A model generated the notes under the pieces. It did not search any database. It had not been told where the DNA came from and saw only the letters and a list, made by a program, of their open reading frames with translations. Of a DNA stretch of 32,000 nt, positions 1 to 30,274 are shown piece after piece. Within the stretch, counting starts at the first letter, position 1, and each line of letters opens with the position of its first letter. The DNA lies in the NCBI GenBank assembly GCA_963705375.1, contig OY970071.1, positions 600,001-632,000 on the forward strand. Direction: 5' to 3'. The stretch is from Candidatus Saccharimonadota bacterium (GTDB taxonomy: Archaea; Micrarchaeota; Micrarchaeia; Micrarchaeales; Micrarchaeaceae). Position numbers and translations under genes: made by a program.

Positions 1-3000
1 TGACCGTGTGCAGTATAGGCAGGTAGCTTATGCTCTTGAGCATGGCTGTGAAGTTGAATGCGGAAGTGGTGCCTATTCTTGCCGGATTGTTGGGCATTAG
101 CAAGTACGTGATGCCGTTTATTATCAGCGATGCAGAGCTAGACCCTATCGAACTCGCAGTAATTTCAAAAGATGTGCCGTTGAGCGAAACAGTCTTGGAA
201 TTCGGCACGGACATGTTCGATATCTCATAGCATGATGACGTTATCTTGGTAACAACAGGGCCTATGGGTCCGCCTGCGCCACTGCCGCCACTTGAACTCC
301 AGCCCGTGCTGCTGCCTCCTGATGAGGGCTGCACAGAGAATAGGCCAACAATAGGGTCACCGTTGAAGCTGAAAGAGACACTGCACGGAGCTGTGGTCGA
401 AACACTTGTCGGAGTTATCGCAGACCATGTCGCACCGCCATCCTTTGATATGAACGGTGTCGGTGCAGAGGTTACGCTGCACGAGTAATAAAGCACCGCA
501 TTCACGGTTATGTCGTTTGATGATGCAGGATTCACATACATAACCTCCACTGCAGAATGGCCAGGGTTGGAAGGGCTGCTCGATGTGATGTTCTGCACCA
601 CCACGTTGACGCTTTCAACTGCGGTGTTTGTGGTAGTGAATGTGAAGGATTGACCCAATATGTTTGTGGTTACCGGAACGTTGTTTGTTACATTCACGCC
701 TAATGAATTAGCAGGAGCGCCATTGAGGAGTATTGTGGTTTGTGATGTTTGCGGCACAAACACAACAATCTGAGCAGCTGTGACCTGGTTTGCGGAGACC
801 GCTGTTGTGGCCGAGTCTTTGACACCTATGCAGTAGTATGTGCTGATTGTTGGAGAGACAACGAACGTCGTTGACTGTCCAGAGACTCCCGATGCCGTAT
901 TTGCCACAGTAGTGTCAGATGAACATGTTGAGGATGAACCTGAGAACAGCGTTACTGCGAAGTTCGGTGCGCCGCCTGTCCAATTTGCGGTTATCGTATT
1001 GGACTGGCCATTGGCTATTGTTGCGCCAGTTGTTGTCAATGATGAGAGTGTGTTGTACATTGTCCACGATGTTGACGGTATTGAATTGAATGATGTGGAA
1101 ACTGAATCACTCATCACGAAGTTTCCGGTCTCTGTGCCTATCTCGTTAGAGGCAGTTGTCCATGTTGATGATAATGATGTGCCTGTCTGGTTAGGCATTG
1201 TAATTGTGTTTGTTATCGAACCTGTGTTCGTTATGATCGCGTTTCCTATGTAGCTCGGCGTCCCTCCTGTTATTGTTGCCGTGATGGTCTGAGTCTGGCC
1301 GACATCGACCTTCGCACTTGTCGGCGTTGGCTGTGATATCGATGGTGCGGCGTTGACCACAATCTGGACGGCAAAGAACTGGTTTGCTGACATAGCTGTG
1401 GTTGCGCTGTCCTTCATTCCGATGCAGTAGTATGTGCTACTGGTTGGAGAGGCGACGAATGTCGTTGAATGCCCCGAGATGCCTGATGCAGTATTAGCGA
1501 CAGTGGTGTCAGATGAACATGTCGAGGATGAACCTGAGAACAGCGTTACTGCGAAGTTCGGCGTGCCACCTGTCCAACTTACAGGTATTGTGTAGCTCTG
1601 GCCGTTGTCGATTGTTCCGCCGGACGTTGAGAGAGACGACATCAGCGAATTGACACCGAATGTGTTGGTCGTTGATGCAGAGCCACTTACGCCGTCTGTA
1701 ACTGTGAACTTGATCTGAGGCGCGCCTAGAGCGTTGTTCGTCTGAGGCACCCGGAATGTGAATGTCGCAGGCGAAGTCGTGATCATTAGTGAGTTCGCGA
1801 TCACGTTGCCATTGATCGTGTTGGTGATGTAGAAGTTCGCCGTGTATGGAGATGTGCCGCCTGTCCATGAACCCGTTATTGTCTCGTATTGCGACTGATC
1901 TGCGATGTTGTTCGATGACCAGGCGCTTGTGATTGATATTGCGGGGTTTACTACTATTTGAACTGCTGTGACCTGATTCGCAGTGTTGGCCACGGATGCG
2001 CTGTCATTTACGCCTATACAATAATATGTGCTGCTGGATGGGGAGACAACGAATGTCGTTGATTGGTCCGAGACGCCTGATGCAGTATTAGCGACAGTGG
2101 TGTCAGATGAACATGTCGAGGATGAACCTGAGAACAGTGTTACTGCGAAGTTCGGCGTGCCACCCGTCCAACTTACAGGTATAGTGTAGCTCTGGCCGTT
2201 GTCGATTGTTCCGCCGGACGTTGAGAGAGACGACATCAGCGAATTGACACCGAATGTGTTGGTCGTTGATGCAGAGCCACTTACGCCGTCTGTAACTGTG
2301 AACTTGATCTGAGGCGCGCCTAGAGCGTTGTTCGTCTGAGGTACCTGGAATGTGAATGTAGCCGGTGACGTCGCTGCTGAGACTACACCGGAAATTACGT
2401 TGCCATTGATCGTGTTGGTGATGTAGAAGTTCGCCGTGTATGGAGATGTGCCGCCTGTCCATGAACCCGTTATTGTCTCGTATTGCGACTGATCTGCGAT
2501 GTTGTTCGATGACCAGGCGCTTGTGATTGATATTGCGGGGTTTACTACTATTTGAACTGCTGTGACCTGATTCGCAGTGTTGGCCACGGATGCGCTGTCA
2601 TTTACGCCTATACAATAATATGTGCTGCTGGATGGGGAGACAACGAATGTCGTTGATTGGTCCGAGACGCCTGATGCAGTATTAGCGACAGTGGTGTCAG
2701 ATGAACATGTCGAGGATGAACCTGAGAACAGTGTTACTGCGAAGTTCGGCGTGCCACCCGTCCAACTTACAGGTATAGTGTAGCTCTGGCCGTTGTCGAT
2801 TGTTCCTCCGGACGTTGAGAGAGACGACATCAGCGAATTGACACCGAATGTGTTGGTCGTTGATGCAGAGCCACTTACGCCGTCTGTAACTGTGAACTTG
2901 ATCTGAGGCGCGCCTAGAGCGTTGTTCGTCTGAGGTACCTGGAATGTGAATGTAGCCGGTGACGTCGCTGCTGAGACTACACCGGAAATTACGTTGCCAT

Positions 3001-5287
3001 TGATCGTGTTGGTGATGTAGAAGTTCGCCGTGTATGGAGATGTGCCGCCTGTCCATGAACCCGTTATTGTCTCGTATTGCGACTGATCTGCGATGTTGTT
3101 CGATGACCAGGCGCTTGTGATTGATATTGCAGGATCGACTACATAAGCGCCTGAGTAGATAGAGTTGTATGTGTTCGGAGTGGCATCAGTTACTGTAACG
3201 CTCATTTTCTCTGGAGAGTTAGAGACGTCGACGCTTGTGAGCGGGAAGGTGAGTGTGTTAGTAGATAGCGCGTTTGTGAACATGTAATTTTTCACTATCG
3301 CATTCGAGATGGAGTTGACCACGAGCCAGTTGTAGGTGTAGGGACCGTTGCCGTTGCTCGCCGTTGCTGTGAAAGTCTCATACTGACCCACGTCCGCCGT
3401 GGGACTGCTCGGACCTGAGGTGATGGCGACCGATGGTGCTGTGATGAGTGGACCGTAGAAATCTAGAGGCATATTCCCATCGGGCTGGAAGACACGAATT
3501 CTCGCCCATTGAAGGAATAGACCTGGATTGCCTGCACCTATTGCACTCATCCCGATAGGGCTCGCAGTCCCCCCACTTCCAGAAGGATATTCGAAATATG
3601 CATTAGCGTTCGGAGCTTCGAGATCCTGCGCACTGGCAAATACATAGTTTGCAGGAAGGTAGAAGGTATATAGCGAGGGAGAACCTTGCGTGTATGTGGT
3701 AGGGGCATTGGCTTCAGATCCAACCCCATTTGCATAGAGGACAAAGGTGTTGCTGGCTGCTTGATCAGCGTAGTCGATTGCTGCTCCGTTTATGCCATTT
3801 GATCCGATATAACCAAAGGCCTCAAGATGACCAGTTGTCGCAGTTGGGACAGTTACCTCCATCTCCAGAAGCTGCGTCCAGTCTAAGCCGAAGTTTGAAG
3901 TGGTTAGGATATTCCCACTTGTCATTATGACTCCGTTGTCTTGCGTCACTCCGCTTGCAACCCATCCGCTCGGCGTTGAAGTCCCTGCAAAGTTTTGGTA
4001 GAGCGTCGGGAACACTAGTGCGCCGTTGTCATACTGCGCATAGGCGCTTGAGAGCACAGGAGACTCTCCCCACGAGCCTATGCTGTTGAAGTTGTTTGTA
4101 GATGTAGAGTAGAATCCAAAGTATATGCTGTTGTCCACAAGCCAACCACTCTCTGGAATCGTGCACCAGATGCCGAGAATGTTCGAGGTGTATAGGTTGG
4201 AGGTCTGTTGTTCGTTGAGCACGTTGCCAGCAAGCCAGCAGTCATATGGAGAGCCAGATACGCCGTCGAATACAACGAAGTTCTGCATGTTGCTTGCTTC
4301 ACGGCTTTGATATGCACCTGCATCGAAGTGAAACTGGGCTTGCGTGTTTGCATCCATTGCTGTGGTGCTAGTGGATGACAAGTATGCTGGCATATAATAA
4401 AGGACGCCTTTTGGAATGATGACGTTGGGTGTGTTTGAAAACAAGGATATTACATAGACTGCTCCGACGTTCCCATCTCCTACATAGAGGGTGTTGGTGG
4501 TGGAATTGATGTAGAGAGCTCCTAAGGTATATGAGCCAGTAGTTATCACAGTCCCTATGGAATTGTCGATGGTGTTGATGGAGTAGATGGTGCCTGTGCC
4601 CCACGCGCCTGTGTAGAGGATGTTGGTGGCGGGATCGAAAGAGAGGGAGCCTATGGCCGGTGCAACAGTAGCTATCGCAGTGCCTACGGAATTGTCGATG
4701 GTGTTTATTGGGTAGATGTTGCCTGAGCCCAAATCTCCTGCGTAGAGGATGTTGGTGGCGGGATCGAAAGAGAGAGCAAATATTGCTCCTGCTCCAGTAG
4801 TTATTGTAGGTCCTATAGAATTGTCTATGGTGTTTATGGTGTTGACAGTACCTGACAAATCACCTACGTAGAGGGTGTTGGTGGCGGGATTGACGTAGAG
4901 AGCCAATGTCATTCCAGCCCCAGTGGTTATCGTGGTGCCTATGGAATTGTCTATTGTGTTGATTGGGTAGACGTCACCTGAATAAAAATCTCCTGCGTAA
5001 AGGGTGTTGGTGGCAGAATCGAAGGCGAGAGCACCTATGCTCGATGCACTAGTCGCTATTGTGGCGCCTATGGAATTGTCGATGAGGTTAATGGGATAGA
5101 TGTTGCCCGAGCTCCAATCACCTACGTAGAGGGTGTTGGTGGTTCTGTCGAAGGCGAGGGAGCGAATATTAGATGAGCCAGTGACAAATACATTTGTTGG
5201 AATTGGAGCACTGCACACCAGATGCAAGAAGCTGGACAGCAGCATAAGCATAAGCAGCAGAGACGCCTTTCCGATCTTTGTTGTCAT
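1..5287 (-). CDS. Very large secreted surface/adhesin-like protein, 3'-partial (at least 1762 codons, continues past left edge)
   Basis: Hand translation of the minus strand from ATG 5287-5285 stays open down to position 2. It is not in the ORF track because there is no stop in the window. The N-terminus MTTKIGKASLLLMLMLLSSFLHLVCSA looks like a signal peptide. About six ~42-aa repeats follow (FDxxTNTLYxGDxxSGxxYxINxIDNSxG), resembling YVTN-type beta-propeller repeats. Next comes a ~300-aa central domain I cannot assign, then repeated ~95-100-aa Ig/PKD-like modules (GGTSPYT and SWTGGTPNF motifs). Confidence 0.85.
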   Translation of the reverse strand, partial: MTTKIGKASLLLMLMLLSSFLHLVCSAPIPTNVFVTGSSNIRSLAFDRTTNTLYVGDWSSGNIYPINLIDNSIGATIATSASSIGALAFDSATNTLYAGDFYSGDVYPINTIDNSIGTTITTGAGMTLALYVNPATNTLYVGDLSGTVNTINTIDNSIGPTITTGAGAIFALSFDPATNILYAGDLGSGNIYPINTIDNSVGTAIATVAPAIGSLSFDPATNILYTGAWGTGTIYSINTIDNSIGTVITTGSYTLGALYINSTTNTLYVGDGNVGAVYVISLFSNTPNVIIPKGVLYYMPAYLSSTSTTAMDANTQAQFHFDAGAYQSREASNMQNFVVFDGVSGSPYDCWLAGNVLNEQQTSNLYTSNILGIWCTIPESGWLVDNSIYFGFYSTSTNNFNSIGSWGESPVLSSAYAQYDNGALVFPTLYQNFAGTSTPSGWVASGVTQDNGVIMTSGNILTTSNFGLDWTQLLEMEVTVPTATTGHLEAFGYIGSNGINGAAIDYADQAASNTFVLYANGVGSEANAPTTYTQGSPSLYTFYLPANYVFASAQDLEAPNANAYFEYPSGSGGTASPIGMSAIGAGNPGLFLQWARIRVFQPDGNMPLDFYGPLITAPSVAITSGPSSPTADVGQYETFTATASNGNGPYTYNWLVVNSISNAIVKNYMFTNALSTNTLTFPLTSVDVSNSPEKMSVTVTDATPNTYNSIYSGAYVVDPAISITSAWSSNNIADQSQYETITGSWTGGTSPYTANFYITNTINGNVISGVVSAATSPATFTFQVPQTNNALGAPQIKFTVTDGVSGSASTTNTFGVNSLMSSLSTSGGTIDNGQSYTIPVSWTGGTPNFAVTLFSGSSSTCSSDTTVANTASGVSDQSTTFVVSPSSSTYYCIGVNDSASVANTANQVTAVQIVVNPAISITSAWSSNNIADQSQYETITGSWTGGTSPYTANFYITNTINGNVISGVVSAATSPATFTFQVPQTNNALGAPQIKFTVTDGVSGSASTTNTFGVNSLMSSLSTSGGTIDNGQSYTIPVSWTGGTPNFAVTLFSGSSSTCSSDTTVANTASGVSDQSTTFVVSPSSSTYYCIGVNDSASVANTANQVTAVQIVVNPAISITSAWSSNNIADQSQYETITGSWTGGTSPYTANFYITNTINGNVIANSLMITTSPATFTFRVPQTNNALGAPQIKFTVTDGVSGSASTTNTFGVNSLMSSLSTSGGTIDNGQSYTIPVSWTGGTPNFAVTLFSGSSSTCSSDTTVANTASGISGHSTTFVASPTSSTYYCIGMKDSATTAMSANQFFAVQIVVNAAPSISQPTPTSAKVDVGQTQTITATITGGTPSYIGNAIITNTGSITNTITMPNQTGTSLSSTWTTASNEIGTETGNFVMSDSVSTSFNSIPSTSWTMYNTLSSLTTTGATIANGQSNTITANWTGGAPNFAVTLFSGSSSTCSSDTTVANTASGVSGQSTTFVVSPTISTYYCIGVKDSATTAVSANQVTAAQIVVFVPQTSQTTILLNGAPANSLGVNVTNNVPVTTNILGQSFTFTTTNTAVESVNVVVQNITSSSPSNPGHSAVEVMYVNPASSNDITVNAVLYYSCSVTSAPTPFISKDGGATWSAITPTSVSTTAPCSVSFSFNGDPIVGLFSVQPSSGGSSTGWSSSGGSGAGGPIGPVVTKITSSCYEISNMSVPNSKTVSLNGTSFEITASSIGSSSASLIINGITYLLMPNNPARIGTTSAFNFTAMLKSISYLPILHTV
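1348..3130 (-). repeat. Three tandem copies of a 594-bp (198-codon) unit inside the surface-protein gene
   Basis: ORF-track shadows at 1509-1868, 2103-2462 and 2697-3056 are spaced exactly 594 nt apart. Units 1942-2535 and 2536-3129 are essentially identical; I saw one mismatch, ccgccgg at ~2206 versus cctccgg at ~2800. Unit 1348-1941 diverges at its left ~130 nt and around 1741-1800. A weaker fourth copy lies at ~754-1347. Confidence 0.9.
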
Positions 5288-5590
5288 ATCACGCGCTTTT
5301 TACCAGAACCGTAAATCCAGCCTTTCCACGTCTTGCATTTTCAGCTTGGGAAAACCGATACTCAGACCTTACCTGTGCAGACCAGTATTTTGCTAAACTG
5401 AGTATGCTTAAATAGATTGTGTTTCTGATGTACAGTCTGTTTTGAGGAGCCGTTTTGGAGTTTTTGTGCAGTGCTGTGCTGGATGTGAATCGAGACGGAA
5501 TCCTACACATTGAAGAGCTCAGGCACACTAAAGGCGCTGTTGAAATAACTGCGACTCTGTTTGTAAAGGGAAAGTAAGCTTGAAGCTTGC

Positions 5591-6190
5591 TCACCGGCGC
5601 ATCAGGTCGCGAAGCAGCGCGTCTTCAGGAAATATAATGTAGGCACCATTGCCAACAGAGCATTTTCGTGAATCGTCAAGATAGATGTCATACCTTTCTT
5701 TGAGCGGGTACATTCCTTTTGTGATTGCGACAACGCCCCACTCGGATTCGCGCGGAAGCGGATCCGGGAGGTGCACGTATGCAAGATTCTTGAACTCTCG
5801 CCCGACATCTCTTTCATACATTATAGGACTAAGCGTCGTGTGCAGATTCTCGTCCTCGTTTATCAAATATGGACCATGTGTCGCGACCAACGGCCGTTCG
5901 AGCAAAGGACAGGAGTGCAGAACAACTCCAATGTGCTCTGCCACCCATCTTGTGGAAGTCATCAAAACACGGTGTTGCATGATTTCGTCAAGGCTTTCCC
6001 TGTTGCGCAGAACATCGGATAGAGTGGCGAGCCACGATCCGCCATTGTTTGGAGACGATTCGAGAAGCTGCACCTGCGTGTGCGCATCAGAAGTGACTAG
6101 AATCTGGTTGTTTTGAATTTTTGCATACATAAAATCATTGCCAACGGCTTGAGTGCTCCAGATATATATACCTGCTTTCTTTGGATTCAT
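5591..6190 (-). CDS. Hypothetical protein, 199 aa
   Basis: Complete ORF, divergent from psmA. No motif recognised. Confidence 0.5.
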   Translation of the reverse strand: MNPKKAGIYIWSTQAVGNDFMYAKIQNNQILVTSDAHTQVQLLESSPNNGGSWLATLSDVLRNRESLDEIMQHRVLMTSTRWVAEHIGVVLHSCPLLERPLVATHGPYLINEDENLHTTLSPIMYERDVGREFKNLAYVHLPDPLPRESEWGVVAITKGMYPLKERYDIYLDDSRKCSVGNGAYIIFPEDALLRDLMRR

Positions 6191-7141: not shown

Positions 7142-7831
7142 ATGATGCAACAGAAAATAGTAACAGTCAAGCTTCGTAAAGGCGGTGAAGAGTTCGAGCT
7201 CCTTGTTGATGCAGGCATGGCATACGAGTACGTGACAGGCAAGCGCAGCGATCCTCTAAGCGTGCTGCAGACAGAAGAAGTGTTCAAGGATGCACGAAAG
7301 AACGAAAGGCAGAACATCGAGAAGATAAAGAAGGTGTTCGGAACAACTGACATAGTGAAGATAGCAGAAGTCATACTAAAGGAGGGGGATGTCCCGATGA
7401 CAGCTGAGCAGCGCAGCCAGCAGACAGAGGAGAAGCGCAAGCAGATAGTAGACATAATATCGAAGAATTCGATAGATCCAAGGACGAATGCACCAAATCC
7501 GCCAATGCGTATCGAAAACGCGATGAAAGAAGCGAAGGTGAACATAGATCCGTTCAAGAATTCCGGCGAGCAGGTAGAAGATATCGTCAAGAAGATAAGC
7601 ATCATAATGCCGATAAAGTTTGCAACAGTAAGGATGACCGTGACAGTGCCTCCGGCATTCGCAAACCGCGCCTTCGGTACGCTAAAGAAGTTCGGCATGA
7701 AGTCGGAACGCTGGCTTCCAGATGGCAGCCTGCAAGCGTCGCTCGAATTCCCTGCGGGAATGCAGAGTGACTTCTTGGAGCGCATAAACAACGCAACACA
7801 AGGGCAAGCAGACGTGAAGATAGAAAAGTGA
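7142..7831 (+). CDS. SBDS-family ribosome maturation protein (Sdo1)
   Basis: The N-terminal [14 protein letters not shown]...VFKDARKNE pattern and the position between psmA and rrp4 are typical of the archaeal superoperon. Confidence 0.85.
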
Positions 7832-7838
7832 TTGTACG
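7828..7838 (+). promoter_or_regulatory. SD-like GTGAT + TGT spacer + ACG (putative rrp4 initiation site), overlapping the SBDS stop TGA 7829-7831
   Basis: The 12-mer AGTGATTGTACG at 7827-7838 is identical to 9977-9988. The same geometry with ATG or GTG occurs at several other starts in the window. Confidence 0.5.
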
Positions 7839-8459
7839 AAAAGACTCATAGTACCTGGAGAACTTATAACATCGAAACCGATAAGGCTGGACAATTCATT
7901 CGTCAAGGATGGTTCCACCTATTCGAAGACGTTAGGAATCTACGATGACCGCGAAATAGTGCCATTAGAGGGCACATGGAAAGCCAGTGTTGGAGATTCT
8001 ATCGTAGGCATAGTCAGCGAGGCAAGGACGAATGTCTGTTTTATTGATTTGTCGTCATTTGTGCGCGGGCTTGTGGTGCTGCGCAAGTACGAAACCGGAC
8101 CAGAAAAGGGCAGCGTCGTAAGCGCCATAGTGAAAGACGTTGAGAACAAAAAGACCGCGATACTGGAAGGGACACGAGAGCTGCACGGCGGCGTGTTGAT
8201 AAAGGTAAAGCCTGCAAAGATACCAAGGATCATAGGAAAGAGCAACACGATGATCAACCAGATATCAAGCTTGACGGCTTCGCACATCGTCGTGGGCATG
8301 AACGGGCTCATATGGATCAATGGCGGGAACAGCAAACTTGCGATCGCTGCGATTGAGCGCATAGGCGAGGAAGCCCATGTACCAGGCCTAACGATGCGCA
8401 TCAAGGAGATGCTCGAGAAAGAGAAAGATAATATTGATATTGAAAAGGGAATTATATGA
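7836..8459 (+). CDS. rrp4: Exosome complex RNA-binding protein Rrp4 (N-terminal + S1 + KH domains), apparent non-canonical ACG start
   Basis: The ORF track starts at GTG 7959. The same frame is open from 7824 and encodes TKRLIVPGELITSKPIRLDNSFVKDGSTYSKTLGIYDDREIVPLEG. As I recall it, this matches the conserved Rrp4 N-terminal domain (A. fulgidus MRKIVLPGDLL...VIPLKG). There is no ATG, GTG or TTG in frame between 7824 and 7958. GTGAT at 7828-7832 plus TGT places ACG 7836 at the start position. Confidence 0.75.
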   Translation, partial: TKRLIVPGELITSKPIRLDNSFVKDGSTYSKTLGIYDDREIVPLEGTWKASVGDSIVGIVSEARTNVCFIDLSSFVRGLVVLRKYETGPEKGSVVSAIVKDVENKKTAILEGTRELHGGVLIKVKPAKIPRIIGKSNTMINQISSLTASHIVVGMNGLIWINGGNSKLAIAAIERIGEEAHVPGLTMRIKEMLEKEKDNIDIEKGII

Positions 8460-9196
8460 AAAGCAACAAACCGGTCCTGATAGTGAACAACAAAAGGCTG
8501 GACGGAAGGGATTTCGACGAACTTAGGCCAATAAACATAAAGGCAGGAGTCATCGAGAATGCTAGCGGATCCGCTTACGTGGAATGGGGCAACAACAAGA
8601 TACTGGCCGCGGTTTACGGGCCAAAGGAAGTCACTCCAAGGCACATGACAGACCCTTCGAAGGCGATAATAAAATGCAGATACACCATGGCACCGTTCTC
8701 GAGCCTTTCTGAGCACGGCAGAAGCGGGCCTTCGCGAAGATCGACGGAGATATCGAAGGTGGCAAAAGAGGTGTTCGAGAACGTCGTGTTCCTCAACGAG
8801 TTCCCGGGCAGCGAGATAGACATATTCATAGAGGTGCTTCAAGGAGACGGCGGCACGCGTGCCGCAGGCATAACAGCAGCATCTGTGGCGCTGGCCAGTG
8901 CAGGCATACCGATGAGGGACCTTGTGTATGCGGTGTCAGTGGGCAGAATAGACGACAAGCTCGCTCTGGACCTCAACATGATAGAGGACAACTACTCGGA
9001 TAGCGACATGCCGATAGCTGTCGCCCCAAGAGACAACGACATAGTGCTTCTGCAGATGGATGGAGGTCTCAGCAGGGAGCAGCTGTCAAGATGCATCTCG
9101 ATCGTGTTGAATGCAGGCAAGGACATATCCAAGAAGCAGGTCGAAGCGCTGAAGGAAAGCTATGAAAGTGTGTCAAAGAAATATGAGGTTAGATGA
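8456..9196 (+). CDS. rrp41: Exosome complex exonuclease Rrp41 (RNase PH-like)
   Basis: LDGRDFDELRPINIKAGVIENASGSAYVEWGNNKILAAVYGPKE is RNase PH-domain sequence. The ATGA overlap with rrp4 fits operon coupling. Confidence 0.92.
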   Translation: MKSNKPVLIVNNKRLDGRDFDELRPINIKAGVIENASGSAYVEWGNNKILAAVYGPKEVTPRHMTDPSKAIIKCRYTMAPFSSLSEHGRSGPSRRSTEISKVAKEVFENVVFLNEFPGSEIDIFIEVLQGDGGTRAAGITAASVALASAGIPMRDLVYAVSVGRIDDKLALDLNMIEDNYSDSDMPIAVAPRDNDIVLLQMDGGLSREQLSRCISIVLNAGKDISKKQVEALKESYESVSKKYEVR

Positions 9197-9981
9197 AAAT
9201 GGATAGCATAGATATGATAAGAGTCAATTATGTGAAGAGTCTGATCGCCAAGAACACGCGTGAAGACAGCCGTGGCTTTTACGACTTCAGGAAAATAAGC
9301 ATCAAGACCGGCACAATGGGAAACGCGGAGGGATCGGCGCAAGTTGATCTCGGCGCCACAAGAGTGATTGCAGGGGTCAAGATAAGCCTAGAGAAGCCAA
9401 TGGAAGACACACCAGACCAGGGCAACATGACTGTCGCTGCGGAGCTTCTGCCGCTCGCAAGTTCAAAATATGAGACAGGCCCTCCAAGCCCTGACGCGAT
9501 AGAGCTTTCGAGAGTTGTTGACAGGGGCATACGCGCCGGCAACTGCATAGACCTTAAGAGTCTGTTCATAGAGCCTGAAAAGGCATGGGGCGTCTACATA
9601 GATGCGTATGTGCTTAACTATGGAGGGAACCTGTTCGATGCGTGCGAGATTGCAGCCATGAGCGCGCTGCTCAACTCCAAGATGCCGATATACGAGGATA
9701 GCAAGGTAATACGCGAGAACCTTAAGCAAAAGCTCAAGATAGACAACATAGTCACATCCACCACTTTTGCAAAAGTAGACGGCATGATACTGCTGGACCC
9801 TTCTAGTGACGAAGAGACTGCATGTGATGCAAGACTCACAATAGCGACGGATGGAAGCAGCGTGAGGGCTATGCAGAAGGGCTTAGGAGGCAGCTTCAAG
9901 GTCAAGGAGGTGGAGGAGCTCGTCGACATATCATTTAATAAGCATGTAGAACTAAAATCTCTAATAGAGAGAAGAGAGTGA
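9193..9981 (+). CDS. rrp42: Exosome complex component Rrp42 (RNase PH-like, inactive subunit)
   Basis: REDSRGFYDFRKISIKTGTMGNAEGSAQVDLGATRVIAGVK, the ATGA overlap with rrp41, and GAGGT upstream. Confidence 0.9.
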   Translation: MKMDSIDMIRVNYVKSLIAKNTREDSRGFYDFRKISIKTGTMGNAEGSAQVDLGATRVIAGVKISLEKPMEDTPDQGNMTVAAELLPLASSKYETGPPSPDAIELSRVVDRGIRAGNCIDLKSLFIEPEKAWGVYIDAYVLNYGGNLFDACEIAAMSALLNSKMPIYEDSKVIRENLKQKLKIDNIVTSTTFAKVDGMILLDPSSDEETACDARLTIATDGSSVRAMQKGLGGSFKVKEVEELVDISFNKHVELKSLIERRE

Positions 9982-9988
9982 TTGTACG
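9978..9988 (+). promoter_or_regulatory. SD-like GTGAT + TGT spacer + ACG (putative rpl37ae initiation site), overlapping the rrp42 stop TGA 9979-9981
   Basis: Identical 12-mer to 7827-7838. Confidence 0.5.
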
Positions 9989-10222
9989 GCAAATGCTAGC
10001 ATAAGATACGGCACAATAATACGGAAGCGTTTCGCTCAGATAAAGAAGGATAAGCGCACGCTCTACAAATGCAACGCATGCGGGAAGAGCGCGGTGCGAA
10101 GGATAGGCACTTCTATATGGAGGTGCAAGCACTGCAGCACCACGTACGCAGGCGGCGCGTACACGATGAAGACCCCTGCGGGCGAGGCCGCGAAGAGGCT
10201 CATAGAGGGCATAAAGCAGTAG
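9986..10222 (+). CDS. rpl37ae: Ribosomal protein L37Ae (zinc ribbon), apparent non-canonical ACG start
   Basis: The frame is open from 9968 to 10222 and encodes TANASIRYGTIIRKRFAQIKKDKRTLYKCNACGKSAVRRIGTSIWRCKHCSTTYAGGAYTMKTPAGEAAKRLIEGIKQ, which has the CxxC...CxxC and RYG..IRK signatures of L37Ae. The first canonical in-frame start is a GTG after the first CxxC, which would truncate the zinc ribbon. The gene is absent from the ORF track. Confidence 0.75.
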   Translation, partial: TANASIRYGTIIRKRFAQIKKDKRTLYKCNACGKSAVRRIGTSIWRCKHCSTTYAGGAYTMKTPAGEAAKRLIEGIKQ

Positions 10223-10421: not shown

Positions 10422-10841
10422 ATGAAAGTTCTTTTCGTTTGCGGGGACAACATGGGAAGGAGCCAGGCAGCAGAAGCTCTGTTCAATCTGCATGCAAAGA
10501 CAAGCAAGGCAGAGAGCTGCGCTGGAAAGCTCGAGATCAAAGAGAACACCACACTTTCCGACATCAAGAATAACAAAAAAGTCGAGGATGTTGTCAAGAT
10601 ACTGAAGAAAGACTATAACATAGACATAAGCAAGAAGATGGCCAAGCCATTCAGCATGGATATGACGAATAACGCAGACATTATAATTTCGATGTGCTCT
10701 GAAGGCGAGTGCCTCAACATACCAAAAGCAGAGCACTGGGATGTTCCTTACCTTCCCCCACTAGATTTCAAGGGTAAAGAGGAGGCAATCAAGGCCCTCG
10801 ACGAAAAGATCAAGGATTTGTTAAAGAGGATAGGAGACTAA
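10422..10841 (+). CDS. Low-molecular-weight phosphotyrosine phosphatase / ArsC-like protein, paralog 1
   Basis: MKVLFVCGDNMGRSQAAE contains the CX5R(S) P-loop. GGTGA lies upstream of ATG 10422. The ORF-track TTG 10386 is probably too early. Confidence 0.8.
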   Translation: MKVLFVCGDNMGRSQAAEALFNLHAKTSKAESCAGKLEIKENTTLSDIKNNKKVEDVVKILKKDYNIDISKKMAKPFSMDMTNNADIIISMCSEGECLNIPKAEHWDVPYLPPLDFKGKEEAIKALDEKIKDLLKRIGD

Positions 10842-10894: not shown

Positions 10895-11311
10895 ATGAGG
10901 GTTCTTTTTGTTTGCGGCGATAATTTAGGTAGAAGCCAGGTTGCCGAGGCGCTGTTTAACCTGCACGCGAAAAGAAGCAAGGCAGAGAGCTGCGCTGGCA
11001 AACCTGAAGTCAAAGAAAGAAGATTGCTTGTGGATGTAAGGCACAAGTCTGTAGAAGAGTGCCTGGAGATAATGAAAAAAGATTATGGCATAGACATAAG
11101 CAGGAAAGTCTCAAAGCCTTTCAGCGCTGAAATGGTAAATGATGCAGACCGTGTAGTAATTCTCTGCTCTGGTTCGGAATGCCCAGACGTACCAGGCGCA
11201 GAGCATTGGGACATACCAAAGCTGTCGCCTCTTGACTTACATGGAAAACAAGAGGTTATCAAGACCATTGGCACTAAGGTCAATGAGCTACTGAACAGAA
11301 TCGGGGACTGA
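10895..11311 (+). CDS. Low-molecular-weight phosphotyrosine phosphatase / ArsC-like protein, paralog 2
   Basis: MRVLFVCGDNLGRSQVAE contains the CX5R(S) loop. The protein is collinear with the upstream paralog over its whole length. Confidence 0.8.
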   Translation: MRVLFVCGDNLGRSQVAEALFNLHAKRSKAESCAGKPEVKERRLLVDVRHKSVEECLEIMKKDYGIDISRKVSKPFSAEMVNDADRVVILCSGSECPDVPGAEHWDIPKLSPLDLHGKQEVIKTIGTKVNELLNRIGD

Positions 11312-11576: not shown

Positions 11577-12179
11577 TCACCTGATTCGCTCTATATGTTT
11601 CATAGCATAGATTCTTATTATATTCTCCTTGAGTTCGTGTATGAAGGATTGCCGATCCTCTTGGAGCTTTTGCACGAACTCCTGCCTATCTTTTTCGATG
11701 GCTTCGTGCTCCTCTGGAGAAATGCCGTGCGCGCTGCCCAGCACCGATTCGAGATGCTGCAAGTATTGAGACACTGTAAACTCGAGATATTCTTCAGTTA
11801 TATGGTAGCTTTGCTTGTTGCATGCCGTGCAGCAGTATATCGGCATGACGGGAAGGCTCCTGCTTGATGATATAGAATCTGCAGACCTTACAAGGCGGAC
11901 CGCGCCGCAGCTAGGGCATGGTTTGTTCAGTTTCACCTCTTCGTAAGCCTTCTCCAGCACACTGGACGATGCAGCACCTAGTGTAAGCCCTATGCACTGC
12001 TCTGATGTCGTGTTTTTGAGCAGTTGCTGCGTCAGTACTGCGCCTTCGCAATCGAAAGTGGTTTCAAGAGTTCCGCCGACCTTATCCTCCCAAAGCATGA
12101 AAGTCTTCCTGCCTCGATTGCCGCATTCTAGCAGCACCTTGCCAGCGCTCCTTGCAATGAAAGCCTCACCGTCTGTCAT
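11577..12179 (-). CDS. Hypothetical protein with a CxxC...CxxC zinc-ribbon, 200 aa
   Basis: Contains CPSCG...CCTACNK. The start ATG abuts the histone stop (TGAATG), so it is likely co-transcribed. Confidence 0.55.
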   Translation of the reverse strand: MTDGEAFIARSAGKVLLECGNRGRKTFMLWEDKVGGTLETTFDCEGAVLTQQLLKNTTSEQCIGLTLGAASSSVLEKAYEEVKLNKPCPSCGAVRLVRSADSISSSRSLPVMPIYCCTACNKQSYHITEEYLEFTVSQYLQHLESVLGSAHGISPEEHEAIEKDRQEFVQKLQEDRQSFIHELKENIIRIYAMKHIERIR

Positions 12180-22256: not shown

Positions 22257-23177
22257 TTATTCTAAAATGTTTTGACTAAATAAGCCTATACTTAAATACT
22301 TCTCGCCATTATCTGGCAGTACGGCCACCACGATGCCGGCATTGTTCAGCGCAGCCGATTTCTTGAGCGCGACATACAGTATTGCAGCAGAGCTCATACC
22401 CGCAAATAACCCTTCTTCTTTGGCCAGCTTGCCTGCCAGATTGAGAATATCAGGCATAGTCTCACCCCCTATCTCTATTATCTCGTCAAAATATTTATCG
22501 TCGAACAGAGCGGTCGGATTGGACTCTTTAGGGTTTCGTAGGCCGTGTATGCTAACGCCAACCTTCGGAGTCACGCCTATGATCCTTATATCTTTGTTGT
22601 ACTCTTTGACTCGCATGGAAACCCCCACGCCAGTACCTGCTGTGCCGATACCCATCACTATCGTGTTCACTTTTCCATCAGTTTGATCAAGAATTTCTTT
22701 GCCCGTAGTTTCATAATGCGCTTGTATGTTTGCAGGGTCTCCAAACTGGTTTATGTCAACATACTTGTCAGGACTTTCCCTTAAAATTTTCCGCTTAAGT
22801 TCTATGGCTCCGGACGTACCTTGTTCGGCCGGCGAGAGGATAAGTTCTGCCCCGTACGCCCTAATTATTTGTCGTCTTTCCATGCTTGCAGATGCAGGCA
22901 TCACTACTGAAACTTTGTACCCTTTTACTGCGGATATCATTGCAAGCGCTATACCTGTATTGCCCGACGTCGCCTCCAGAATGGTTTTTTCGCCGTTTAA
23001 TCGTCTGGCGGTTTCTGCAGAGTTAATCAGATACAGTGCGGCCCTGTCCTTTATGGAGCCGCCGATGTTGTACCACTCCAGTTTTGCATACAATGTGGCA
23101 CCATCAGGGTTCGCAGACCTTATCTTTATCATCGGCGTTTTCCCTATGAGATCGAGTATGCTGTTTACAACGGCCAT
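22257..23177 (-). CDS. PLP-dependent cysteine synthase family protein, second paralog
   Basis: NIGGSIKDRAALYLI and SGNTGIALA. The start is chosen at ATG 23177 because the minus strand reads GGTGATTGTATG (23186-23175). The ORF-track ATG 23189 is the alternative. Confidence 0.88.
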   Translation of the reverse strand: MAVVNSILDLIGKTPMIKIRSANPDGATLYAKLEWYNIGGSIKDRAALYLINSAETARRLNGEKTILEATSGNTGIALAMISAVKGYKVSVVMPASASMERRQIIRAYGAELILSPAEQGTSGAIELKRKILRESPDKYVDINQFGDPANIQAHYETTGKEILDQTDGKVNTIVMGIGTAGTGVGVSMRVKEYNKDIRIIGVTPKVGVSIHGLRNPKESNPTALFDDKYFDEIIEIGGETMPDILNLAGKLAKEEGLFAGMSSAAILYVALKKSAALNNAGIVVAVLPDNGEKYLSIGLFSQNILE

Positions 23178-23361
23178 ACAATCACCCATTACCCTGAAAA
23201 AGGACTAGAAGGAAACTACTGCGCGTCCTGGCTTGCCCTGCGTTCAATACATATTTGACTCTGTAGAGCATCTGCATTGGCGGGACATCACGTTCACTGC
23301 GGTCACTATGAATATTAAGGTATAAAAAGATACTGTACAGCAAAACGGCTCCTTGTGCACT

Positions 23362-29424: not shown

Positions 29425-29525
29425 GGGCTCGTAGCTCAGCTTGGACAGAGCGGCAACCTTCTAAGGTGCTCAAAATGCATCAAGGAGTAAGTTGATGGTC
29501 GTGGGTTCAAATCCCACCGGGCCCG
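29425..29525 (+). tRNA. tRNA-Arg (anticodon UCU) with a ~26-nt intron at the canonical 37/38 position (about 29464-29489)
   Basis: Folded by hand. Acceptor GGGCTCG/CGGGCCC with one G-U pair. D arm GCTC/GAGC. Anticodon stem GCAAC/GTTGA with a G-A mismatch at 27-43. Loop CTTCTA|intron|A. T arm GTGGG-TTCAAAT-CCCAC. Discriminator G. An ATATATA box at 29396-29402 lies ~25 nt upstream. Intron borders are ambiguous by 1-2 nt. Confidence 0.85.
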
Positions 29526-29621
29526 ATGAAATTTGCAGATGTCAAGCTTCGGGTTCGAATCCGTACAATGCAAAGCAAGACAAGCCTGAAAAGGCGGGTT
29601 CTGGTGCGTTCGGCTCCATCA

Positions 29622-29646
29622 GTTTGCATGAGCACTCCATGCAAAC
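29622..29646. other. Perfect 9-bp stem / 7-nt loop hairpin (GTTTGCATG-agcactc-CATGCAAAC) between the tRNA and a convergent ORF
   Basis: Read directly from the sequence. Function unknown; possibly a transcript-end structure. Confidence 0.4.
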
Positions 29647-29665
29647 CTAGGCAGACGACACTAGT

Positions 29666-30274
29666 TCAATCTTCTGTTCTTAACACTCCCTCAATTTTCG
29701 ACCTGATTTTGACCCCAACCACCACCAAGACAACGCGCAGAGGGCCTTCGTCCGCAACGAGGTCGAAACGCGACCCGATGAAACTGGCAATGGTGTCCGT
29801 AAGTACGTTCAGCCACAACGGGTTCTTTCCTGGATAAGCATAAATCGTCTTTTCCATGTCGCCCTTTCCTTCTACGAGCTTGCCTTCATTATCGAAAGTA
29901 CACCAACCTGATTCCTTGAGACCTTTTCCATCCAGATGGAACCATTTTCCCTTCAATCGCGCCTTTACGTCCAGGTTTCTGTCTATAAGTACAAGTGCTT
30001 CCTGATAAGTCAGGGGCCTTAGGTGATTGTGCTTCAAAAGTTTCATAGACTTGGCATGATTTGCCTCGGTTTCAGATACGAATACGCCAGTATTGTTTAC
30101 TTCCGTAAACTGTGTTTCCGTGATCGCTTTAGTTTTGGGCATTTTATCAAAGCTATCTATTACCATTATCTCCGTTTGTCCAGATACGCATACTATTGGT
30201 TTTCCTGACAGTTTATTTACGACTCTTTGTTGAAAATAACCCCATCTTTCGTCCAGCACGATCGCTTCGAGCAC
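29666..30274 (-). CDS. Hypothetical protein, 202 aa (GTG start uncertain)
   Basis: Complete ORF. No motif recognised. Confidence 0.45.
   Translation of the reverse strand: MLEAIVLDERWGYFQQRVVNKLSGKPIVCVSGQTEIMVIDSFDKMPKTKAITETQFTEVNNTGVFVSETEANHAKSMKLLKHNHLRPLTYQEALVLIDRNLDVKARLKGKWFHLDGKGLKESGWCTFDNEGKLVEGKGDMEKTIYAYPGKNPLWLNVLTDTIASFIGSRFDLVADEGPLRVVLVVVGVKIRSKIEGVLRTED

Follow-up and report, generated by a model that had tools for sequence, protein, structure and literature searches.

Putative ACG initiation codons of rrp4 and rpl37ae in a conserved gene cluster of Micrarchaeota

Two gene junctions in the exosome cluster

The window, by which we mean the whole stretch of 32,000 nucleotides analyzed here, comes from a member of the Micrarchaeota (DPANN) and carries at 6.4-10.4 kb, on the + strand, the conserved cluster psmA, SBDS, rrp4, rrp41, rrp42, rpl37ae and rpoP. 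At two of the junctions within this cluster, SBDS/rrp4 and rrp42/rpl37ae, an ACG triplet occupies the place of the start codon. The features concerned are the following.

7828-7832, + strand: SD-like element GTGAT of rrp4, which includes the SBDS stop TGA (7829-7831)
7836-7838, + strand: ACG, proposed rrp4 initiation codon, in frame with Rrp4
7836-8459, + strand: rrp4 coding sequence, 207 codons plus stop, with KH_6/KH_1 domains; its homologs are named exosome complex component RRP4
9978-9982, + strand: SD-like element GTGAT of rpl37ae, which includes the rrp42 stop TGA (9979-9981)
9986-9988, + strand: ACG, proposed rpl37ae initiation codon, in frame with L37Ae
9986-10222, + strand: rpl37ae (eL43) coding sequence, 78 codons plus stop; Pfam PF01780

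The rpl37ae frame is open from 9968, just after a TAG at 9965-9967, to the TAG at 10220-10222, and its product matches PF01780 with E=4.8e-23, residues 7-77 aligning with profile positions 14-84 of 85. The first in-frame ATG, GTG or TTG is the GTG at 10094, which would open an ORF of only 42 aa (10094-10222) that lacks the first CxxC. Upstream of the ACG, the nearest in-frame stop is six codons away, with no near-cognate codon between. The original prediction had given the extent of this frame (9968-10222), had held that the gene has no usable canonical start and had placed the GTG after the first CxxC, all of which we confirm. The rrp4 frame is similarly constrained: it opens at 7824, an in-frame stop lies four codons upstream of the ACG, there is no near-cognate of ATG from the frame opening to the ACG, and the first canonical start, GTG 7959, is 41 codons past it.

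Each ACG is located three nucleotides past its GTGAT element, and the two junctions share the 12-mer AGTGATTGTACG, which has exactly two copies in the window, at 7827-7838 (SBDS/rrp4) and 9977-9988 (rrp42/rpl37ae). The shared 12-mer, the upstream TGA stop within each copy and the position of ACG four nucleotides after GTGA had all been predicted and were reproduced here. The accompanying argument, that such sharing is very unlikely by chance, was not: with the repeat region left aside, 55 same-strand pairs of identical 12-mers were counted in the window versus about 21 expected, the expectation assuming uniform composition, and among relatives the spacer is TGT, TAA, TCT, TTG, TGC or TAC, leaving only GTGAT-N3-ACG as the common part. 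What is unusual is that both copies of AGTGATTGTACG lie at gene starts in the same register, not that the 12-mers are identical. We therefore rejected AGTGATTGTACG as a special element, given the variable spacer, the frequency of identical 12-mers and the occurrence of GTGATTGT before a normal ATG at 23177(-); it is made up of an SD element, three spacer nucleotides and the start-slot codon.

The same layout is the usual one for canonical starts in the window, where GTGA(T/A)-N3-ATG/GTG is found at no fewer than nine starts. Example contexts are gtgatcta-ATG (rpoP), ggtgatcat-GTG, gtgattaa-ATG, gtgataga-ATG, gtgataca-GTG and ggtgattgt-ATG (23177(-)).

6422, 11572(-), 14286(-), 15404, 16462, 18059, 21305(-), 23177(-) and rpoP 10258: canonical starts with GTGA(T/A)-N3
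23175-23186, - strand: comparator GGTGATTGTATG, with SD and spacer as in AGTGATTGTACG and then a normal ATG, in a PALP-family gene (Pfam family taken from the ortholog in locus L120)

Both ACGs of the window are placed at the SD distance of canonical starts, as seen at these starts (at least nine) and at 33 ATG starts across the loci compared. GTGAT fits the SD sequence expected from the 3' end of archaeal 16S rRNA, with which it presumably pairs.

Several other features of the window were recorded. A minus-strand ORF at 1-5299, of more than 1,760 codons, runs past the left end of the window and contains four tandem 594-nt units (about 744-3287) and an array of 129-nt repeats (about 4485-5174); its product is probably a repetitive surface or secreted protein. 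Just 3' of rpoP lie two adjacent paralogs of the low-molecular-weight phosphatase / ArsC type (10422-10841 and 10895-11311, + strand), both starting with M(K/R)VLFVCGDN; both are missing at that position in L120 and L130. At 29425-29525 (+) there is a tRNA gene of 101 nt, scored by Rfam at 51 bits and missed by ARAGORN, with an insertion of ~27 nt after the anticodon loop that is probably an intron, and a small ORF (29526-29837) begins exactly at its 3' end.

Start slots of rrp4 and rpl37ae among relatives

The comparison set comprised 74 loci from species-representative genomes and 45 metagenome loci, together with 14 further loci, on contigs encoding Rrp4 proteins, that came from a homology search and whose gene calls are mostly truncated. 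L120 and L130 come from peat or bog samples. Alignments with the genome loci covered 67 relatives for rpl37ae and 70 for rrp4. The codon aligned to the rpl37ae ACG is ATG in 53/67 relatives and GTG or TTG in another 9/67, so that 62/67 are canonical; the codon aligned to the rrp4 ACG is ATG in 51/70, and most of the 70 are canonical. Counting about 100 Micrarchaeota loci in total, nearly all have ATG, GTG or TTG at the codons aligned to the two ACGs, with ATG in the majority. The protein N-termini agree with this register. L37Ae reads TANASIRYG in the window versus a consensus of MANASIRYG in relatives, and the conserved Rrp4 N-terminus TKRLIVPGEL matches MKR(I/L)VVPGE in relatives, whose consensus is MKRIVVPGE. 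Peptides expected from an N-terminus at the ACG position would be (M/T)ANASIR... and (M/T)KRLIVPGELITSK....

On the Rrp4 tree the window belongs to a clade of eight lineages (the window, L001, L124, L120, L122, L126, L127 and L077), to which L008, with ATG at both rrp4 and rpl37ae, is the sister lineage. Rrp4 amino acid identity to the window is 64-74% within the clade, while codon identity at identical Rrp4 residues is only 50-60%, and synonymous divergence is near-saturated. The rrp4 start slot nonetheless holds ACG in seven of the eight lineages (the window, L001, L120, L122, L124, L126 and L127) and ATG in L077, and the rpl37ae slot holds ACG in five of the six lineages with data (the window, L001, L120, L122 and L077) and ATG in L127. 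ACG and ATG are the only codons found in these slots within the clade. The codons of L127 (contig_51209) call for caution, because rrp41, rrp42 and rpl37ae are fragmented there by frameshifts (4621-6153) in a pattern that looks like assembly indel errors, not biology. The assignment of ACG to the start-codon position, as first proposed, is borne out both by the canonical codons aligned with it in relatives and by its retention at both genes of the clade. ATG at a different junction in relatives had been named in the original prediction as grounds for abandoning the ACG start. This pattern is true of distant relatives but leaves the ACG start unrefuted, because the nearest relatives keep ACG.

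The sequence that follows the ACG evolves as a reading frame. Between the window and L122, rpl37ae codons 2-5 have three differences (GCA/GCG, AAT/AAC and GCT/GCC) and rrp4 codons 2-4 have two (AAA/AAG and AGA/AGG), all of them third-position and synonymous. Judged from these substitutions, the codons just 3' of the ACG behave as coding sequence and are translated. Both frames are intact and under purifying selection. Reassignment of ACG was considered and rejected: internal ACG codons align with invariant Thr at Rrp4-186 (119/119), Rrp41-134 (121/122) and SBDS-115 (105/106), and therefore ACG is not reassigned.

Archaeal starts are generally taken to be AUG, GUG or UUG, and ACG is not among the starts of NCBI table 11; standard gene finders therefore cannot call ACG starts. 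Public calls in ACG lineages give Rrp4 proteins of 182-192 aa versus about 207, and L37Ae of 43-60 aa or no call at all, a systematic N-terminal truncation that arises because of the ACG start.

L120 12138-12320, L122 3340-3519 and L130 12255-12386: truncated or missing calls of rpl37ae and rrp4 (proteins P0001, P0003, P0004, P0006 and P0009)

Such truncated Rrp4 and L37Ae calls distort DPANN marker-gene sets and estimates of completeness.

Near-cognate codons in other start slots

A third gene family shows the same kind of start slot.

11577-12179, - strand: Zn-ribbon gene, whose ATG abuts the TGA that ends the preceding histone-fold gene

ACG replaces this ATG in L001 and L008, while L120, a near relative of L001, has ATG. 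The first canonical start in L001 and L008 lies 13-17 codons past the ACG, beyond the conserved IARS.GKV motif. The slot holds ATA in L002, L006 and L011, ATC in L003, and ATG, GTG or TTG in the other lineages; downstream of it, the orthologs in L002 and L003 run for more than 50 codons without a canonical start. In addition, the SD-defined slot of rrp4 is ATA in L029 and L099 and possibly in L036.

We made an unbiased survey of GTGA[TC]-N3 sites across all loci, counting frames of at least 100 codons that open within eight codons upstream of the slot. The slot held ATG 33 times, ACG 8 times, GTG 3 times and ATA 3 times, counts that are phylogenetically non-independent; at control spacings of 2, 5 and 6 nt, ACG was counted 2, 1 and 0 times, respectively. 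The counts nonetheless imply several separate ATG/ACG changes in three genes. AAG and AGG, the poorest near-cognates, were absent from the start slots surveyed, in which ACG, ATA and ATC were present. A scan of the window, L001, L077, L120, L122, L127, L008 and L130 for ACG starts found no convincing ones beyond the three gene families, so that the ACG-start genes amount to 2 of ~35 window genes and to three families overall, which are phylogenetically non-independent. No ACG case is more than 4 nt from an upstream stop: the TGA is inside GTGAT for rrp4 and rpl37ae and abuts the slot (TGA-ACG) in the Zn-ribbon gene. The only upstream sequence common to the three families is the SD element GTGA(T/C).

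Proposed initiation at ACG, competing readings and known systems

On this comparative evidence we consider it likely that translation does begin at ACG 9986 of rpl37ae and at ACG 7836 of rrp4. In the proposed mechanism the P site would come to lie on the codon three nucleotides past GTGAT, either in a ribosome that has just finished SBDS or rrp42 or in a small subunit that SD/anti-SD pairing keeps in place. The likely route to this position is reinitiation, once the ribosome has terminated at a TGA that lies within or next to the SD element. Initiator Met-tRNA (anticodon CAU) would then pair with ACG at all but the middle base, a weak codon-anticodon interaction for which the constant SD spacing and the link to upstream termination may compensate. 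Sussman et al. in 1996 are said to have found ACG to be a poor initiator in bacteria, at about 1-3% of AUG. Output from ACG is probably lower than it would be with AUG, which is counter-intuitive for a ribosomal protein, and this lower efficiency might be used for tuning protein dosage.

The spread of codons across the start slots suggests that near-cognate codons may be tolerated in the SD-anchored, termination-coupled initiation of these ultrasmall archaea. A more far-reaching version, which we regard as rather unlikely, is that the Micrarchaeota or this family have a changed apparatus, through relaxed aIF1 proofreading or an altered initiator tRNA, or reinitiate independently of the initiator, such that ACG and AUA/AUC are efficient and interchangeable genome-wide at SD-coupled junctions. 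If true, efficient ACG, AUA and AUC starts would enlarge the set of archaeal start codons beyond what annotation now recognizes. With respect to a special initiator tRNA, ARAGORN returned no tRNA from the window and only Ser, Thr and Pro tRNAs from all loci; the Rfam tRNA at 29425-29525 was rejected as an initiator, its anticodon being read as UCU (Arg).

A different route to the same protein would be C-to-U editing of the mRNA, which would turn the genomic ACG into AUG before translation and leave the decoded codon canonical. The pattern within the clade is that of an edited site, since the genomic ACG sits exactly at the ATG of relatives and only ACG or ATG is found. In other lineages, however, the Zn-ribbon slot holds ATA or ATC, which C-to-U editing cannot repair, whereas near-cognate tolerance covers ACG, ATA and ATC together. 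We know of no C-to-U editing of archaeal mRNAs, whether as machinery or as edited transcripts; only tRNA editing is known to us. Editing of ACG to AUG here would be the first such case for an archaeal mRNA and is the rarer alternative, one that we judge improbable.

Quite improbable as well is that the ACG remains untranslated and that synthesis begins downstream, at ATA/ATT (codon 6 of rpl37ae, at 10001, and codon 5 of rrp4, at 7848) or at the GTGs at 10094 and 7959. Table 11 does list ATA and ATT as starts, and one or the other is present at codon 4-6 in every clade member, but these codons are 15-18 nt from the SD element, outside the N3 spacing of every other gene, and the Ile codon is also shared by relatives whose start is ATG. 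Between ACG and ATA, moreover, the window and L122 differ only synonymously, and the encoded residues fit the family consensus (ANAS or K/R-K/R). A start at GTG 10094 would cost L37Ae half of its zinc ribbon, and one at GTG 7959 would cost Rrp4 41 conserved residues.

We consider it very improbable that a canonical start in another frame (GTG 9978/7828 or TTG 9982/7832) is followed by a programmed -1 or +1 frameshift, or that an RF2-like +1 shift at the TGA yields a fusion. Both window junctions do have GTG at -8 and TTG at -4, and the order of SD element and UGA stop is loosely reminiscent of the prfB frameshift site. The GTG at -8, however, is part of the SD element and is found at every GTGAT-led gene, and the TTG at -4 is missing in L001, L120 and L122. 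Neither a slippery sequence nor a conserved 3-nt spacer accompanies the junctions. Relatives also place stops in the way: in L124 and L127, where TTG is immediately 5' of the rrp4 ACG, the GTG frame meets TGA at its third codon, and in L001 and L120 an in-frame TAA is immediately 5' of the rrp4 ACG, therefore allowing no upstream ribosome entry into the rrp4 frame. A Rrp42-L37Ae fusion is, in addition, functionally implausible. On these comparative data we rejected the -1 shift from the GTG at -8, the +1 shift from the TTG at -4 and the RF2-like fusion alike; the original prediction had already rated a -1 shift from GTG 9978 as the weaker option, and the lack of a slippery site, the variable spacer and the stops in relatives support that rating.

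Artefact or decay can hardly be credited, be it an error of sequencing or assembly or pseudogene formation in a reduced genome. Both ACGs are one base from ATG, but at least seven distinct lineages have ACG, and assemblies made independently from different samples reproduce it: an independent Logan read-set assembly (L129, 99.8% identical to window 7429-8818) also has the rrp4 ACG, and all four L077-type genome assemblies (L130-L133) have the rpl37ae ACG. The frames are intact and under purifying selection, and their products are a core ribosomal protein and a cap subunit of the exosome. The early dismissal of sequencing error thereby stands through these assemblies and the ACG clade, and not through the identity of the 12-mers, which is weak evidence for it.

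Initiation at ACG, as proposed here, has precedents outside the archaea. Near-cognate starts are known from AAV VP2 and the ACG of Sendai virus C', from the class IIA codons of E. coli (CUG, AUU, AUC, AUA and ACG) and from the AUU of infC. As in these eukaryotic, viral and E. coli cases, the codon in the window is one base from AUG, occupies a defined site and is presumably decoded by a singly mismatched initiator tRNA. In contrast to these known cases, the ACG starts described here are archaeal and clade-conserved, and each would be the sole start of an essential conserved gene, with no alternative isoform; their context is an SD element and an adjacent upstream stop, as opposed to the scanning and Kozak context of eukaryotic near-cognate starts. 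Archaeal initiation uses eukaryote-like factors, and the ACG starts offer a testable case for start-codon fidelity in archaea.

The junctions also resemble prokaryotic termination-reinitiation coupling, in which the stop is within a few nucleotides of the start and the SD element lies inside the upstream gene. As in coupled operons, the ACG-start genes and their neighbors lie close together on one strand, in what is a conserved archaeal exosome cluster. Unlike usual prokaryotic coupling, which employs ATG, GTG or TTG, the codon here is ACG, and dependence on upstream translation is putative. The genomic ACG at a position where homologs have ATG recalls the start editing of plant chloroplasts and mitochondria, yet unlike in those organelles, ATA and ATC occur in the same slot of relatives, beyond the reach of C-to-U repair. 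What sets these genes apart from the known cases, we provisionally conclude, is an ACG that would serve as the sole start of essential genes in an archaeon and that has been kept across a clade.
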